Shown here: one piece after another, positions 28,880-48,170 of the stretch
Numbering within the stretch: position 1 is the stretch's first letter
Layout: the number at the start of each line of letters is the position of its first letter
Source: Bacteroidales bacterium
GTDB lineage: Bacteria > Bacteroidota > Bacteroidia > Bacteroidales > JAGONC01
DNA length: 49,091 nucleotides
NCBI GenBank assembly: GCA_023133655.1
Contig: JAGLWB010000388.1
Span: 1 to 49,091, forward strand
Direction of reading: 5' to 3'
Made by a program: the position numbers and the translations under genes
Notes under the pieces: generated by a model
Seen by the model: the letters and a program-made list of their open reading frames with translations, nothing else
What the model was told of the DNA's origin: nothing
Database searches by the model: none

Positions 28880-30235
28880 TTACACTACCCCTTGTGCAAG
28901 CATTGCATCAGCCACTTTAACAAAGCCTCCGATGTTTGCACCTTTCACGTAGTCAATGTATCCATCTTCCTCTGTACCATACTTTTTACATGTTTCATGG
29001 ATGTCTTTCATAATTTGATGCAATCTGCCGTCTACCTCTTCACGAGTCCAGGAAAGCCTCAGTGAATTCTGCGACATTTCAAGTCCTGAAGTTGCAACAC
29101 CACCTGCATTAGCAGCTTTACCAAGACCATAAAGGATCCTGTTTTCCATATAAATTGCAATAGCCTCAGGTGTAGATGGCATATTTGCGCCTTCTGACAC
29201 AACAAAACAACCATTGTTTATTAATGTTCTGGCATCATCGCCATCAATTTCATTTTGAGTTGCGCTGGGTAAAGCAACATCACATTTTATACCCCATGGC
29301 CTCTTACCTTCAAAATATTCCACACCATATTTATCAGCATATTCCTTAATTCTACCTCTCTTAACATTCTTCAAATGCATAACATATGCCAGCTTCTCAG
29401 CATCAATGCCGTCAGGGTCATAAATAAATCCAGCGGAGTCTGACATCGTTACCACTTTGGCTCCCATCTCGGTTGCTTTTTCAGTGGCATATTGAGCAAC
29501 ATTACCTGAACCTGATACAAGGCATATCTTTCCTTTCAGGCTGTCGCCTCTGGTTTTCAACATCTCTTCAGCAAAATATACCTGGCCATAACCAGTCGCT
29601 TCAGGTCTGATGAGGCTACCACCCCATTCTCTTCCCTTTCCTGTTAAAACACCGGTGAATTCATTTCTCAATCTTTTGTACTGACCGAAAAGGAACCCTA
29701 TCTCTCTTCCACCAACACCAATATCACCAGCTGGCACATCTGTATTGGGGCCGATATGACGGAATAATTCGGACATAAAACTCTGACAAAAATGCATTAC
29801 TTCGTTATCTGATTTCCCTTTGGGATCAAAATCAGATCCACCTTTTCCACCACCCATTGGAAGGGTTGTCAAACTATTTTTAAATACCTGCTCAAAAGCA
29901 AGGAACTTAAGCATGCCAAGGGTTACTGTGGGGTGAAAACGTAATCCGCCTTTGTAAGGGCCAATTGCACTATTCATTTCAATCCGGTATCCCTTATTCA
30001 CCTGGACTTCTCCCTTATCATCTACCCACGGAATTCTGAACAATATAACTCTTTCAGGTTCAACACAACGTTCCAGAATCTTAGCAGCTTTGTACTTTGG
30101 ATTCTCTTCAATAAAAGGAATGATAGACTCAACAACTTCCTCTACCGCCTGGTGAAATTCAACTTCACCCTGGTTTTTAGCAATGACTTGCGCCATGAAA
30201 TCTTTGACCAGTTGGTCATGCATTTGATTTGCCAT
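28880..30235 (-). CDS. gdhA: Glutamate dehydrogenase (NAD(P)-dependent, hexameric type)
   Basis: [70 protein letters not shown]. Confidence 0.97.
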
Positions 30236-30564
30236 ATTTATGGATCTTTAAATTAGTAATATGTTAATTCTTAGCTTATTATAATAGCTTATTTAAAAGG
30301 AAGCAATATTAATTAAAATATTTCGAATAAGAACAAGAAAAAAGTGTTTTTTTTGTTATGTTTATAGCAGTTGAATCCGGGTAAGCTTAACTTCACATCC
30401 AGGGTGTTTTAAGTATTGGATAATGAATATTTGTTGATGTTTAAAGAAATTCACATAGATTGATTGTCAATTATGGAAAATTTTGTAACTTTAAGCTTCA
30501 TATTAAAGATAATATATTCAACCCTGGATTGCTGTTTTTTATCAAATTTGCAGAAAAAAAGTAT

Positions 30565-45109: not shown

Positions 45110-45200
45110 CATAATGATGCTTCATTCATATGGGTACGTAAGCCTAAGGTACCCTAATGATGGAACATGTGGTAACATTTATTAATTTCCATATTAAAAC

Positions 45201-48170
45201 ATGGCTCTTCATCCCCTGAAATTAAACTTAAAGAAGTACTATTTCGACGATACTTCATTCATCAACCTGATGAAAAAGCGTATTTATCATGTGCTTCTAA
45301 TCTCTAGTGCCTATGATGCTTTTATCCTTGAGGATGACGGAAGAGTTGATGAACAGATCTTCAATGAATATGTTTCCCTGAACCTGAGATACCCTCCACA
45401 GTTCATTATTACCGATTCGGAAGAAGAAGCTTTTAAAATTCTTGAAGAAATTCATATCGACCTTATCATTACTATGCGTAGCGCTGCCGAGGCCAATACA
45501 TTTGAGATTGCAGGGCGCCTGAAAAGCAAATACCCGGATACCCCCATCGTAATTTTGACCCCTTTCTCACGGGAAGCAACGATAAAAGTTGACAATGAAG
45601 ACCTGAGCGCCATTGACTACATATTTAGCTGGCTGGGTAATCCTGACATCCTACTGGCTATTATTAAGCTTATTGAAGATAGGATGAATGTAGAACAAGA
45701 TGTAAGCGAGGTTGGTGTACAAACAATTATCCTGGTGGAAGATTCAATACGTTTTTATTCAAGTTACCTTCCTAATATTTATAAAATTATCTTCAAACAG
45801 TCAAAGGCTTTTATGACGGAGGGGCTGAATGAACACCAGCAAATGCTGAGAATGCGTGGACGGCCGAAGATCTTACTGGCTACAACATATGAAGAAGCCA
45901 TATCCTTGTATGAGACTTATAAAAAAAACCTCCTCGGTATCATCACTGATGTGAGTTATATACGAAACGGGGTAATGGACAAAGAAGCAGGCATCAGGTT
46001 ATGTAAAAAAGTTAAGGCCGATGATCCTTATATGCCCCTTTTACTTCAATCATCAGAGGCTGAGAATGAAAAAATCGCTAAAAAAATAGAAGTCGGATTT
46101 ATCAATAAAACATCGAAAACACTTTCTATTGAACTTCGTAAGTTTATTATCGACTTTTTTGCTTTTGGAGATTTTATTTTCCTGGATCCTGACACAATGC
46201 AAGAGATTAACAGGGCACCAGATTTGAAATCTCTTCAAATGAAAATGTTTGAGATCCCCGACGATTCACTCCTGTACCACATTACCAGGAATCATTTCTC
46301 CAAATGGCTCCGTGCCCGGGCCCTTTTCCCGCTGGCCGACCTGTTCAGGGATCTTCGGATGGGAGATTTTGATAATGACCTTTTTGCTGTCAGAAGATTC
46401 GTTTTTGATGCCATGGCTAATTTTAGGATCAGTAAAGCAAGGGGTATTATCGCTGAATTCAGCAAAGAACGGTTTGATGATTACCTCAGTTTTACCCGGA
46501 TTGGCGACGGGTCAATCGGAGGAAAAGCACGCGGGTTGGCTTTCATCGATAACCTGATCAAAAAATACCATATCCTTGATAAATACGATGATGTTATTGT
46601 AACCATCCCAAAAACTGTTGTTTTATGCACTGATATTTTCGATGAGTTCATGGAAGAAAACAACTTATATAAAATTGCTCTTTCCGATTTAAGCGATGAA
46701 GATATCTTACAACATTTTGTTAAAGCAAGGTTGCCATTCCGTATCCATGAAGATCTCTATACGCTGATAAGCTATGTCAGAAAACCATTGGCTATCAGAT
46801 CCTCCAGTCTCCTGGAAGATTCTCATTATCAACCATTTGCCGGCATCTATTCAACATATATGATCCCCTACATTGAAAATGATGAGCGGTTAATGAACCA
46901 AATATTAAGCGATGCCATTAAATGTGTATATGCTTCTGCCTTCTTTAAAAACAGCAAAGCCTATATGGCTGCCACCTCTAATTTGATCGATGAGGAAAAA
47001 ATGGCCATCGTTATTCAAACAGTTTGTGGACAAAACTATAATGGCAAGTATTATCCAACCATCTCCGGAGTTGCCCGGTCAATTAACTTTTATCCAATTG
47101 AACCCGAAAAACCTGAAGATGGAATAGTCAATTTAGCTCTTGGATTGGGAAAACATATTGTTGACGGCGGAATGACATTGAGGTTTTCACCTAAATATTC
47201 TTCAAAAATACTACAGCTTTCAACACCTGAAATGGCCCTCAAAGAAACGCAGAAAGTATTTTACGCCCTTGACCAATTATCTGGTGGCTTTACTCCAAAT
47301 ACAGATGACAATTACAATATCATTAAATATAAAATCAAAGAGGCAGAAAAAGATCTACCCTTTAAACATGTGGCTTCCACTTATGATTTTGAAAATAACT
47401 TAGTGAGAGATGGGATCCATTATAAAGGGAAAAAGTTGATCACATTCTCAAATATATTAAACCATAATGTGTTCCCACTTGCAGAGATCATCGGAATGGC
47501 CCTGGAGATTGGCCAAAAAGAGATGAATAAACCAGTTGAGATTGAATTTGCCGTGGATATGGGAGTTTCAAAAGACGAACCAATTATTTTCAACCTGCTC
47601 CAAATAAGGCCTATTGTTGATATAAAGGAAACCATTGATGAGAACCTGGAGGATATTCCGGTTGATGAAACGATTATTTATTCGAATTCTGCCCTGGGTA
47701 ATGGAGTGATAAATGACATTTGTGACCTTGTCTATGTTAAGCCTGAAACTTTCAGTGCTGACAGGAACCCTGAGATTGCCAGAAAAATTGGAGAAATCAA
47801 TGAGCAGTTTATCAGAGAAAATAAAAATTACATCCTTATCGGGCCGGGGCGTTGGGGCTCATTGGATCCATGGCTGGGCATACCTGTAAAGTGGCCTCAG
47901 ATCTCCTCAGCAAGGGTCATTATTGAATCAGGGCTTGAAAACTACCGCATTGACCCAAGCCAGGGTACGCACTTTTTTCAAAACCTTACATCGTTCAGGG
48001 TGGGCTATTTCACCATTAATCCGTACATAAATGACGGATTTTACGACCTCGGCTATCTCTCCTCTTTTTCTCCATATTATGAAGATGAAAACATCAGGCA
48101 TATCCGGTTTGAAAAGCCGCTGACTGTGATGATTGATGGGCAGAAGAATATCGGGGTGATCATGAAATAA
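45201..48170 (+). CDS. Receiver domains + PEP/pyruvate-binding (PPDK_N ATP-grasp) multidomain protein, paralog 2
   Basis: REC (ILVED..IITD..LQSS..FINK); GGKARG, AIRSSSLLED..FAG, VEIEFA, LLQIRP; C-terminal GPGRWGS..SQGTHFFQN. Confidence 0.88.
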   Translation: MALHPLKLNLKKYYFDDTSFINLMKKRIYHVLLISSAYDAFILEDDGRVDEQIFNEYVSLNLRYPPQFIITDSEEEAFKILEEIHIDLIITMRSAAEANTFEIAGRLKSKYPDTPIVILTPFSREATIKVDNEDLSAIDYIFSWLGNPDILLAIIKLIEDRMNVEQDVSEVGVQTIILVEDSIRFYSSYLPNIYKIIFKQSKAFMTEGLNEHQQMLRMRGRPKILLATTYEEAISLYETYKKNLLGIITDVSYIRNGVMDKEAGIRLCKKVKADDPYMPLLLQSSEAENEKIAKKIEVGFINKTSKTLSIELRKFIIDFFAFGDFIFLDPDTMQEINRAPDLKSLQMKMFEIPDDSLLYHITRNHFSKWLRARALFPLADLFRDLRMGDFDNDLFAVRRFVFDAMANFRISKARGIIAEFSKERFDDYLSFTRIGDGSIGGKARGLAFIDNLIKKYHILDKYDDVIVTIPKTVVLCTDIFDEFMEENNLYKIALSDLSDEDILQHFVKARLPFRIHEDLYTLISYVRKPLAIRSSSLLEDSHYQPFAGIYSTYMIPYIENDERLMNQILSDAIKCVYASAFFKNSKAYMAATSNLIDEEKMAIVIQTVCGQNYNGKYYPTISGVARSINFYPIEPEKPEDGIVNLALGLGKHIVDGGMTLRFSPKYSSKILQLSTPEMALKETQKVFYALDQLSGGFTPNTDDNYNIIKYKIKEAEKDLPFKHVASTYDFENNLVRDGIHYKGKKLITFSNILNHNVFPLAEIIGMALEIGQKEMNKPVEIEFAVDMGVSKDEPIIFNLLQIRPIVDIKETIDENLEDIPVDETIIYSNSALGNGVINDICDLVYVKPETFSADRNPEIARKIGEINEQFIRENKNYILIGPGRWGSLDPWLGIPVKWPQISSARVIIESGLENYRIDPSQGTHFFQNLTSFRVGYFTINPYINDGFYDLGYLSSFSPYYEDENIRHIRFEKPLTVMIDGQKNIGVIMK

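Follow-up and report, generated by a model that had tools for sequence, protein, structure and literature searches.

Gene organization of the 19-kb island

The DNA stretch analysed here (the window, 49,091 nucleotides (nt)) is one whole contig of a 3.76-Mb Bacteroidales genome that consists of 428 contigs and is labelled G000. Positions 28880 to 48170 hold a 19-kb island of eleven genes: the glutamate dehydrogenase (GDH) gene gdhA, two paralogous genes whose products carry receiver and PPDK_N domains (P1 and P2, members of what is called here the P family), a five-gene operon that encodes NuoE-, NuoF- and NuoG-like proteins (BfuC, BfuB and BfuA) together with an NfnS/NfnL pair, and a second operon in which the gene of a Cys-rich protein, Cys284, precedes another such pair. 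Near-identical DNA is present in cold-seep and marine-sediment metagenomes. The genes, with product lengths in amino acids (aa), are as follows.

28880..30235, minus strand: gdhA, type-A NADP-specific GDH, 451 aa, divergent from P1
30565..34047, plus strand: P1, about 1160 aa, frame open from a TTG at 30460
34076..35476, minus strand: NfnB1, NfnL-type, 466 aa, last gene of the five-gene operon
35481..36290, minus strand: NfnA1, NfnS-type, 269 aa
36290..38887, minus strand: BfuA/NuoG-like, 865 aa
38896..40761, minus strand: BfuB/NuoF-like, 621 aa
40754..41206, minus strand: BfuC/NuoE-like, 150 aa, 2Fe-2S thioredoxin-like, first gene of the operon (PF01257, E 3.2e-47)
41543..42397, plus strand: Cys284, 284-aa Cys-rich protein
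42447..43271, plus strand: NfnA2, NfnS-type, 274 aa
43287..45071, plus strand: NfnB2, NfnL-type, 594 aa
45201..48170, plus strand: P2, 989 aa

All eleven are open frames, with family matches for the named ones (open reading frame (ORF) listing, Pfam and NCBIfam scans), and the gene content and calls of an earlier note on this DNA were found to be essentially right at each of the eleven positions. For P1, translation and alignment indicate that the ATG at 30565 is the likely start rather than the TTG at 30460. The arrangement is not a mis-assembly, because contigs of four other samples span the gdhA/P1, P1/NfnB1, NuoE/Cys284 and NfnB2/P2 junctions.

The genes of the five-gene operon are tightly packed or overlapping, with spacings of -8 nt (NuoE/NuoF), 8 nt (NuoF/BfuA), -1 nt (BfuA/NfnA1, the start of NfnA1 overlapping the stop of the BfuA-like gene) and 4 nt (NfnA1/NfnB1). 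On the plus strand the gaps are 49 nt between Cys284 and NfnA2, 15 nt between NfnA2 and NfnB2 and 129 nt between NfnB2 and P2. In a related strain (run X6) 134 nt of this last spacer (45066-45201) are replaced by 6 letters, which puts P2 directly behind NfnB2; the same run also skips 64 nt at 41204-41269, upstream of the NuoE-like gene. A scan for sigma-70 promoters and terminators gave counts matching those of shuffled sequences (59 versus 53.8 and 19 versus 19.3, respectively), and the Bacteroidetes-type motif TAnnTTTG occurs once, at 45102, in the five intergenic regions; no conclusion is drawn from either.

P1 and P2 are not phosphoenolpyruvate synthases

P2 is composed, in order, of a pseudo-receiver, a receiver, a linker, a PPDK_N ATP-grasp domain and a C-terminal swivel-like domain that contains His924. 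The same series, ending in a C-terminal His domain, is found in P1 behind an N-terminal GAF-like domain. The latter is a lead only: P1-type proteins have about 170 extra N-terminal residues with GAF-cluster atlas features of 0.85-0.88, and Pfam searched at E<=5 returned nothing at the P1 N-terminus (one match at E 0.11) and nothing in the P2 linker. PPDK_N (PF01326) matched P2 at E 5.8e-40 and P1 at E 5.1e-35, together with a REC match in P2 and a weak one in P1. The AlphaFold2 model of P2 (pLDDT 90.9, pTM 0.86) was compared with known structures using Foldseek. The best match of the ATP-grasp domain was rifampin phosphotransferase (5hv1, E 5.5e-13), followed by HpeI (9goj), phosphoenolpyruvate (PEP) synthase (2ols) and PPDK, and the receiver pair resembled tandem receivers of the PleD type (E about 1e-5).

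Conservation was counted in an alignment of 83 P sequences. The ATP-grasp motifs are kept (G440-G441-K442, R533-S534-S535, E539-D540, E780/E782 and Q801/R803 in P2 numbering), as is a C-terminal block with GPGRWG and SQG(S/T)HFFQN. The first receiver has a Thr at the acceptor position. The second is predicted to be a genuine receiver, as it retains the acid pocket (E180 in 79 sequences, D181 in 71), the acceptor Asp (D250, 74), the Ser/Thr (S284, 78) and the Lys (K303, 80). His924 is kept in 82 of the 83 sequences and stands at a helix start after Ser/Thr, where the catalytic His of phosphohistidine carrier domains is likewise placed. When the C-terminal 190 residues of P2 were modelled alone (pLDDT 90.2), VIA-align matched them to the His domain of RPH (Z 6.6 over 109 residues), the central domain of PPDK (Z 6.6 and 6.3), the C-terminal domain of pyruvate kinase (Z 6.4) and Enzyme I and EI-Ntr (Z 5.0-5.4). 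Seven of the nine top rows are phosphohistidine carrier domains of the PEP-utilising type.

At least 7993 homologs of P2 were found at E<=1e-10. At E<=1e-30 at least 1227 clusters of 50% identity are represented in the family, and full-length proteins make up most of the best 150. The sources call these proteins 'phosphoenolpyruvate synthase', 'PEP/pyruvate-binding domain-containing protein' or 'CheY-like'. The first of these names is unsupported, because the PEP/pyruvate barrel is absent: P1 and P2 have no PEP-utilizers_C match, and P2 ends about 65 residues past His924. In addition, the His domain of P2 has no Pfam PEP-utilizers match and the PEP synthase models of NCBIfam score only 28-48 bits against cut-offs of 598-883. 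P1 and P2 are thus not PEP synthases. Their domain logic, as read from motifs and models, supports a putative receiver-gated phosphotransferase of the dikinase type.

Each P clade pairs with its own type of GDH

The gdhA product matches the NADP-specific GDH model NF006929 over its full length (768.8 bits, cut-off 536) and has the Pfam domains ELFV_dehydrog and ELFV_dehydrog_N. Contig C183 of the same genome carries a third P paralog (1151 aa, P1 clade), which immediately precedes a second type-A gdh (446 aa) in the same orientation; contig C52 carries a third gdh. Upstream of the C183 pair (locus L004, 765-7178) lies a gene for a sigma-54 activator (AAA+ plus HTH_8) that is cut by the contig end, and a TatD gene lies downstream.

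In a sample of 41 genomes of the order, covering 32 families, P was present in 39 and gdh in 40. By a hand comparison of coordinates, 19 of the 39 relatives with P, from 13 of the 32 families, have a gdh no more than about 2 kb from a P gene, and it is divergent from, upstream of or downstream of P; the gdh of one relative (G004) is fragmentary and contains a stop codon. Eighty further loci, 1.35 Mb in total, were found in other genomes with an alignment of P2, and they include Bacteroides, Phocaeicola, Prevotella, Paludibacter, Muribaculaceae, Rikenellaceae, Lentimicrobiaceae and Lutibacter. A gdh is present in 25 of them and lies within 2 kb in 21. About 0.5 gdh would be expected by chance in 1.35 Mb, as estimated from 61 gdh matches in some 150 Mb, so that the adjacency amounts to an estimated forty times the chance expectation.

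A FastTree phylogeny split the P proteins into a P1 clade of 23 rows and a P2 clade of 91 rows with a Shimodaira-Hasegawa-like (SH-like) support of 100. The gdh genes were sorted into type A (at least 70% identity to the gdhA of the window, NF006929) and type B (57-64% identity, NF010633 above its cut-off). Of the 23 P1-clade rows, nine have a gdh of type A next to them and none has one of type B; conversely, among the 91 P2-clade rows, 22 stand beside a gdh of type B and none beside one of type A. Each P clade was therefore matched to its own GDH type without exception in 31 adjacent pairs. The vicinity of gdh to REC/PPDK_N genes, which the earlier note had taken as known, is thus borne out by the sequences, but a literature search returned no paper on it.

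A second metabolic neighbour recurs. In 12 of the 80 loci P1 or P2 is immediately preceded, on its own strand, by a gene for the KorB-like subunit, which binds thiamine pyrophosphate, of a 2-oxoacid:ferredoxin oxidoreductase, and a KorA-like subunit is visible in 4 loci; examples of these KorA/KorB-like genes are L043:5256-6278 and L041:1370-3214. In the genome of the window, KorAB-like genes are located on contig C346, away from any P gene. The other neighbours vary and include a hybrid two-component system (HTCS) regulator, a phosphoesterase, UbiA, peptidases and transporters.

The P proteins may be small-molecule dikinases, like phenylphosphate synthase, HpeHI, rifampin phosphotransferase and PigC, which would act on a metabolite of the 2-oxoglutarate/glutamate node while the receivers tune their activity. 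Their closest folds are indeed those of small-molecule phosphotransferases (RPH 5hv1, HpeI 9goj, PEP synthase 2ols), the ATP-grasp motifs are intact and the recurrent neighbours, gdh and KorAB-like genes, encode metabolic enzymes. However, no acceptor-binding domain is recognisable in the P proteins, the PEP/pyruvate barrel is absent, and the strict pairing of P clade and GDH type is more easily explained by a protein partner. We regard a small-molecule dikinase as possible, though doubtful. Because of the clade-to-clade pairing, the cognate GDH is our preferred acceptor, a metabolite being the main alternative.

The five-gene operon looks like an unfused Nfn-Bfu enzyme

The solved relatives closest to BfuB are 9bov_B (E 2.1e-223), 9n5u_B, named 'NfnB' (E 3.4e-223), and 8oh5_B (E 7.8e-215), which align over residues 24/26-613/614. 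Since these B subunits of Nfn-Bfu enzymes are the nearest solved relatives and outrank the HydB chains of hydrogenases, the module that had been described as HydBC-type is better called Bfu-type. BfuB has an N-terminal extension and a C-terminal 2x[4Fe-4S] domain with two C-terminal Fer4 motifs; such additional N- and C-terminal iron-sulfur domains, next to a 2Fe-2S thioredoxin-like BfuC, point to membership of the Bfu family.

The 865-aa BfuA-like protein contains Fer2_4, NADH-G_4Fe-4S_3, Fer4_Nqo3, Molybdop_Fe4S4 and Molybdopterin domains, and the Pfam scan gave no Molydop_binding (PF01568), no Pyr_redox_2 and no Fer4_20. Its 120 best homologs (44-91% identity) are from metagenome-assembled genomes of Bacteroidota, Zixibacteria and Planctomycetes. 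Some sources name such homologs 'formate dehydrogenase alpha subunit', and the best PDB sequence matches of the protein are formate dehydrogenases of the FdsA type (6tg9_A, E 3.5e-83). An active formate dehydrogenase would make the operon a formate:NADP+/ferredoxin oxidoreductase (Fdh-Bfu plus Nfn). In FdsA a Cys-His pair is catalytic; compared with the Rhodobacter enzyme (6tg9_A), the 865-aa protein has Ser-Tyr and a 3-residue gap at this position. Moreover, TIGR01591 reached 273 bits against a cut-off of 666 and matched profile positions 1-512 of 672 only. Lacking a Cys/Sec-His pair and Molydop_binding, and with TIGR01591 under its cut-off, the protein was rejected as a formate dehydrogenase. 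In NfnA of Caldicellulosiruptor saccharolyticus (Csac), this degenerate domain has been interpreted as a remnant; that protein consists of an N-terminal domain, an NfnL-like part and then an Fdh/NuoG-like part with an incomplete pterin site (PMC11829005). A formate-oxidising operon is consequently very improbable.

NfnB1 gave full-length matches to 4ylf_B (E 2.9e-182) and 5jca_L (E 9.5e-161) and scored 606 bits with TIGR01316 (cut-off 472), while NfnA1 matched 5jca_S (E 5.8e-79) and 4ylf_A (E 1.5e-65) over its full length. By their scores above the TIGR01316 and NF004862 cut-offs, both Nfn pairs of the island are predicted NfnSL subunits. Fused BfuA proteins of 1226-1245 aa, encoded by relatives, contain the same parts as the 865-aa protein plus an inserted NfnL-like segment (Fer4_20/Pyr_redox_2). 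As the BfuA of the window is without this segment and a separate full NfnL is encoded together with NfnS, the operon is read as an unfused Nfn-Bfu with an added NfnS. In the available parts of section 5 of Schut et al. 2022 (PMC9304861), Nfn-Bfu is given as the fused Type 1 only, which has an NfnL-like domain inserted in BfuA; these parts, supplements aside, describe no Bfu type with NfnSL as added subunits, and they state that in Thermococcaceae Nfn-Bfu and NfnAB do not occur together, each member having one or the other. The insertion that marks Type 1 is absent from the BfuA of the window. In a FastTree phylogeny of NfnL-type sequences, the NfnL-like parts of nine of the ten fused proteins formed one clade with an SH-like support of 100, which included one truncated row. 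All ten fell in a 13-row clade apart from the free NfnB proteins, together with two long-branch rows adjacent to BfuA.

The five-gene order recurs in two relatives, G003 and G005. With an alignment of the BfuA-like protein, 80 metagenome loci were found. Among the 43 with at least 2.3 kb downstream of the BfuA-like gene, 28 have NfnA and NfnB directly behind it, 4 NfnA only, 1 NfnB only and 10 neither. NuoF lies upstream in 46 of the 56 loci with enough upstream DNA, and NuoF, NfnA and NfnB all flank the gene in 21 of 35 loci with both flanks. By these counts, the operon that the earlier note described as NuoEFG-like plus NfnAB is a conserved unit. The 865-aa protein had no match at E<=1e-150 in 300 further genomes of the phylum; since relatives of it do exist in the protein database and on metagenome contigs, it is rare in that sample rather than absent. 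At three loci (L162:7001-9493, L164:4792-7278 and L168:1317-3845) the N-terminal part of BfuA is fused to an NfnS-like part (828-842 aa), with NfnB behind it, a third way to join Bfu and Nfn parts. Taken together, sequence comparisons suggest that the five-gene operon looks like the unfused counterpart of NfnABC and StnABC.

A Cys-rich module accompanies the second NfnSL pair

Cys284 consists of two copies of a module of about 130 aa, each with eight invariant Cys and one invariant His in an alignment of 28 sequences, which suggests two candidate tetrahedral metal sites per module. No known family was recognised in it, as Pfam gave sub-threshold zinc-ribbon matches only. Its homologs form a small family (293 at E<=0.001 among 833 candidates scored) that is unnamed or carries zinc-ribbon guesses.

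The two proteins encoded behind it are again of the NfnSL type. NfnA2 scored 401 bits with NF004862 (cut-off 220) and has the Pfam domains FAD_binding_6, NAD_binding_1 and DHODB_Fe-S_bind; NfnB2 scored 576 bits with TIGR01316 (cut-off 472) over residues 147-590. Residues 1-125 of NfnB2 are a third copy of the Cys284 module, 36% identical over 119 residues to residues 153-268 of Cys284 (BLASTP, E 2e-27), with a weaker match to the first half of Cys284. Six further genomes of the family (G002-G007) share the order Cys284-NfnA2-NfnB2, and the NfnB2 group nests among the NfnB proteins adjacent to BfuA in the phylogeny of NfnL-type sequences. In G003 (L009, G003:C21 4904-5719), a gene for a nucleotidyltransferase of the AbiEii toxin type is located just past NfnB2, where the window has P2.

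Redox genes near gdh and P in relatives

Ten of the 41 relatives, from 4 families, have a gene for a Bfu-type NuoF no more than 10 kb away from gdh or P. In the family of the window, f1, the same genes stand together in seven of the eight genomes (G000, G002-G007), and the arrangement differs between genera. Genus g2 has gdhA divergent from P1-Cys284-NfnA2-NfnB2, followed by 4-5 sugar-metabolism genes and then by NuoE-NuoF-fused BfuA-P2; in G004 and G007, P2 starts 12-13 nt after the fused BfuA. Genus g3 has the order of the window, with P2 on another contig. In two genomes of other families (G040 and G020), a single strand carries gdhA-NuoE-NuoF-fused BfuA, which in G040 diverge from a tandem of P1 and P2, and in G039 the Bfu genes are about 6 kb from P-gdh. 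Nfn or Bfu genes are present in 4 of the 80 loci found with P2, including L031, where gdhA is divergent from P1-NfnA2-NfnB2-P2, and L032, with NuoE-NuoF-fused BfuA-P2. Seen from the other side, 3 of the 80 metagenome loci with the Bfu-Nfn operon have an ELFV dehydrogenase nearby; at L129 a GDH of the archaeal type is followed after 14 nt by a PPDK_N protein. The association of gdh and P with redox modules is thus real but partial. The literature search, including the available parts of PMC5552732, PMC6405883, PMC7382037 and PMC12596196, yielded nothing on a link between gdh and Nfn, nothing on the P family and no description of a BfuABC+NfnSL operon.

Another operon with NuoE- and NuoF-like parts was observed in G006 (L020, G006:C64 1151-7591), just upstream of P1. 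Its products are a NuoE-like protein of 286 aa, a 1076-aa fusion of NuoF with a GltD/NfnL-like part, a Fer2_4 protein of 226 aa and a protein of 543 aa that has a Glu_synthase domain. In the genome of the window, contigs C320 and C311 encode fusions of NuoF and GltD that are similar.

The earlier note had read the 19 kb as one integrated system, in which GDH is fed by two Nfn isoenzymes and a HydBC-type module under the control of the dikinase-like pair, and had named synteny and co-occurrence as the check. The outcome was mixed. P and gdh do adjoin in 19 of 39 relatives and 21 of 80 loci, redox genes do lie near them in 10 of 41 relatives, and several observations go further: the cohesion of the genes in seven of eight f1 genomes, the placement of P1 ahead of Cys284-NfnA2-NfnB2 on the same strand in genus g2, P2 closely behind fused BfuA in G004 and G007 or 129 nt behind NfnB2 in the window (a spacer nearly gone in the strain of run X6), and the compact arrangement at L031. 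The island is not a fixed system, however. It is interrupted in genus g2, P2 is unlinked in genus g3, and what lies between the P genes differs by genus (fused or unfused Bfu, sugar-metabolism genes). Outside this group the P genes form a simple tandem without redox genes: P1-type and P2-type genes occur together in 14 of the 80 loci, mostly in tandem, and Nfn genes join them in 1 of the 14. A single integrated system therefore seems quite improbable to us.

At the other extreme, the neighbourhood might have no shared function, being made of independent housekeeping operons that drifted together in one family, with a role of P unrelated to GDH. This would fit the 55 of 80 P loci without gdh and the 76 of 80 without Nfn or Bfu genes in their available flanks, the varied other neighbours of P and the fact that kin share gene order by descent. 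Yet the estimated forty-fold excess of gdh adjacency is spread over three arrangements and 13 families, the pairing of P clade and GDH type holds in all 31 adjacent pairs, a gdh-PPDK_N pair recurs with a distant GDH class at L129, and gdhA-Bfu operons exist in two further families. We judge drift without shared function to be unlikely.

Genes flanking the island

The gene after P2 (48280-49089) is open at the contig end, and its position behind P2 is conserved across five genomes of the family (818-969 aa); L023:2224-5133 is a full-length counterpart. Its homologs have no Pfam match and resemble TolB/WD40-type propeller proteins of Bacteroidota (atlas features 0.99; PD40 in 12-25% of members). 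This ORF is not counted as part of the system. On the gdhA side, window positions 12606-28628 contain ABC-2/GldG-like genes (ABC_transp_aux, DUF4340), which in genera g2 and g3 stand directly beside gdhA. In the window they are separated from gdhA by a polysaccharide-synthesis cluster and three proteins sorted by the type IX secretion system, which suggests an insertion next to the island. Farther away, the window encodes cytochrome bd oxidase subunits I and II (498-3174) and, not far from a DUF134 protein (6649-7134), two P-loop NTPases that have 4Fe-4S motifs (3845-5565); these genes (498-7134) are oxygen-related ones in an otherwise anaerobic-looking genome.

A model for the 2-oxoglutarate/glutamate and NADP(H) node

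On balance we think it somewhat probable that the 19 kb bring together, in a lineage-specific manner, three modules that are each conserved on their own and serve the 2-oxoglutarate/glutamate and NADP(H) node. The reading of the earlier note is supported in part: the region is a conserved functional neighbourhood, as distinct from a fixed integrated system. The first module would be the NADP-specific GDH with its cognate P1-type partner. The second would be a five-subunit, unfused enzyme of the Nfn-Bfu type, made of BfuC, BfuB and BfuA, the last with a dead pterin domain; the enzyme's NADP(H)-binding arm would be the complete NfnS/NfnL pair. The third would be a second NfnSL enzyme with a Cys-rich metal module on its NfnL and the two-module partner Cys284.

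KorAB-type enzymes link ferredoxin to 2-oxoglutarate, and the Nfn reaction makes or consumes the coenzyme of NADP-specific GDH; the neighbourhoods therefore converge on one node. This reaction (NADH + reduced ferredoxin + 2 NADP+ -> NAD+ + oxidised ferredoxin + 2 NADPH) is reversible according to PMC11829005. Both Nfn-type enzymes of the island would interconvert NADH plus reduced ferredoxin and NADPH, and so may set the NADPH/NADP+ pool on which GDH draws in assimilation or which it feeds in glutamate fermentation. As for the P proteins, the ATP-grasp domain would load a phosphoryl group on His924 of the swivel domain, and phosphorylation of Asp250 in the second receiver may gate this loading. 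The acceptor would be, as our preferred guess, the neighbouring GDH isoenzyme, or else a metabolite of the node. What the analysis establishes is domain content, conservation and synteny; from these we infer the formation of complexes, the reactions and their direction, and any regulatory link between the modules, control by P included.

A number of observations weigh against this reading and are gathered here. In 20 of the 39 P-bearing relatives gdh lies elsewhere, 59 of the 80 P2-type loci have no gdh within 2 kb and 76 have no Nfn or Bfu gene in the available flanks, and related genomes are not independent samples. Similarly, 77 of the 80 Bfu-Nfn metagenome loci are without an ELFV dehydrogenase, and 10 of the 43 BfuA-like loci lack Nfn genes behind BfuA. 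Nor does the island persist as a unit: in genus g2 unrelated sugar-metabolism genes lie inside it, and in genus g3 P2 is on another contig. For the P proteins, the best match of the swivel domain (Z 6.6) is under the safe level of the tool (8), Foldseek run on the C-terminal domain of P2 alone gave no match at E<=0.001, and no histidine kinase partner is evident near the P genes. Finally, the BfuBC core and the NfnSL pair are each bifurcating by itself, a point that weighs on the stoichiometry of a joint complex.

A bolder form of the model can be stated. In it, P1 and P2 would be receiver-gated protein dikinases, each dedicated to one GDH isoenzyme and reversibly switching it by phosphate derived from His924, and in this lineage the switch would be wired directly to two NADPH-producing transhydrogenases, one of which, with five subunits, would join a Bfu core to a complete NfnSL and so combine two bifurcating modules in a single complex. 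We hold this form to be rather unlikely as a whole. Such a switch would also account for a reversible in vivo inactivation of the GDH of Bacteroides fragilis, which was reportedly described in the 1980s.

Besides the claim that was examined, the most useful outcomes are the widespread unfused Bfu-NfnSL operon and a large, mis-annotated family of GDH-linked receiver-dikinases. This very large P family, misnamed PEP synthase, occurs both in sediment lineages and in Bacteroides, Prevotella, Phocaeicola and Muribaculaceae, its consistent genomic partner is GDH and its domain logic suggests a phospho-control of nitrogen assimilation. Regulation at the 2-oxoglutarate/glutamate node is poorly understood in Bacteroidota, and the island layout, which partly recurs in relatives, hints at an undescribed control of nitrogen assimilation. 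A switch of GDH by P, if true, would be a post-translational nitrogen and redox control that takes the place of the systems of enteric bacteria. The BfuCBA-NfnSL operon, widespread in metagenomes, bears on how the Bfu family recruited an NADP(H) arm and leads one to ask if two bifurcating modules could operate in series. The Cys-rich module on NfnL, with its two-module partner, may be an unrecognised accessory of Nfn enzymes.

Comparison with known systems

The P proteins share with PEP synthase, PPDK and rifampin phosphotransferase the PPDK_N ATP-grasp domain with its nucleotide and metal motifs, and their C-terminal domain best matches the carrier domains of these enzymes, with a near-invariant (S/T)-His at a helix start. 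They differ from them by two receiver-type N-terminal domains, preceded in P1 by the GAF-like domain, and by having neither the barrel nor a recognisable acceptor-binding domain. As in PleD-type regulators, a receiver pair, one member with the full residue set and the other without, precedes an enzyme domain; the output of P, however, is an ATP-grasp/His module and not GGDEF, the pseudo-receiver comes first and no cognate kinase gene is nearby. Enzyme I-Ntr, which is tied to the 2-oxoglutarate/glutamine node, offers a functional analogy: it has a phosphohistidine swivel domain, to which the swivel-like domain of P may correspond (the match at Z 5.0-5.4 mentioned above), and a GAF-like N-terminal sensor, for which the GAF-like domain of P1 is a lead only. 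In P the donor module is an ATP-grasp rather than a PEP-binding barrel, and receivers are present; NPr or EIIA-Ntr partners were not seen, although no search was aimed at them.

The five-gene operon shares the common BfuC+BfuB core with the Nfn-Bfu enzymes (NfnABC of C. saccharolyticus and Thermococcus sibiricus, StnABC of Sporomusa ovata), to whose B subunits the BfuB of the window is closest. Also common to them are a BfuA with an N-terminal 2Fe-2S domain, 4Fe-4S clusters and a pterin-less Fdh/NuoG-like domain, and an NfnL-type NADP(H)-binding flavoprotein within the operon. In NfnABC and StnABC the NfnL-like domain is carried inside BfuA, whereas the NfnL of the window is separate, full-length and canonical; furthermore, the operon of the window encodes NfnS, which NfnABC does not have. 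With respect to the NfnSL enzymes of Thermotoga maritima (4ylf) and Pyrococcus furiosus (5jca), full-length matches to the two subunits were obtained with NfnA1/NfnB1 as well as with NfnA2/NfnB2. The two pairs differ from these enzymes in distinct ways: pair 1 lies within a Bfu operon with an overlapping stop and start, and the NfnL of pair 2 has a 125-residue Cys-rich N-terminal module and is preceded in its operon by the two-module paralog Cys284.

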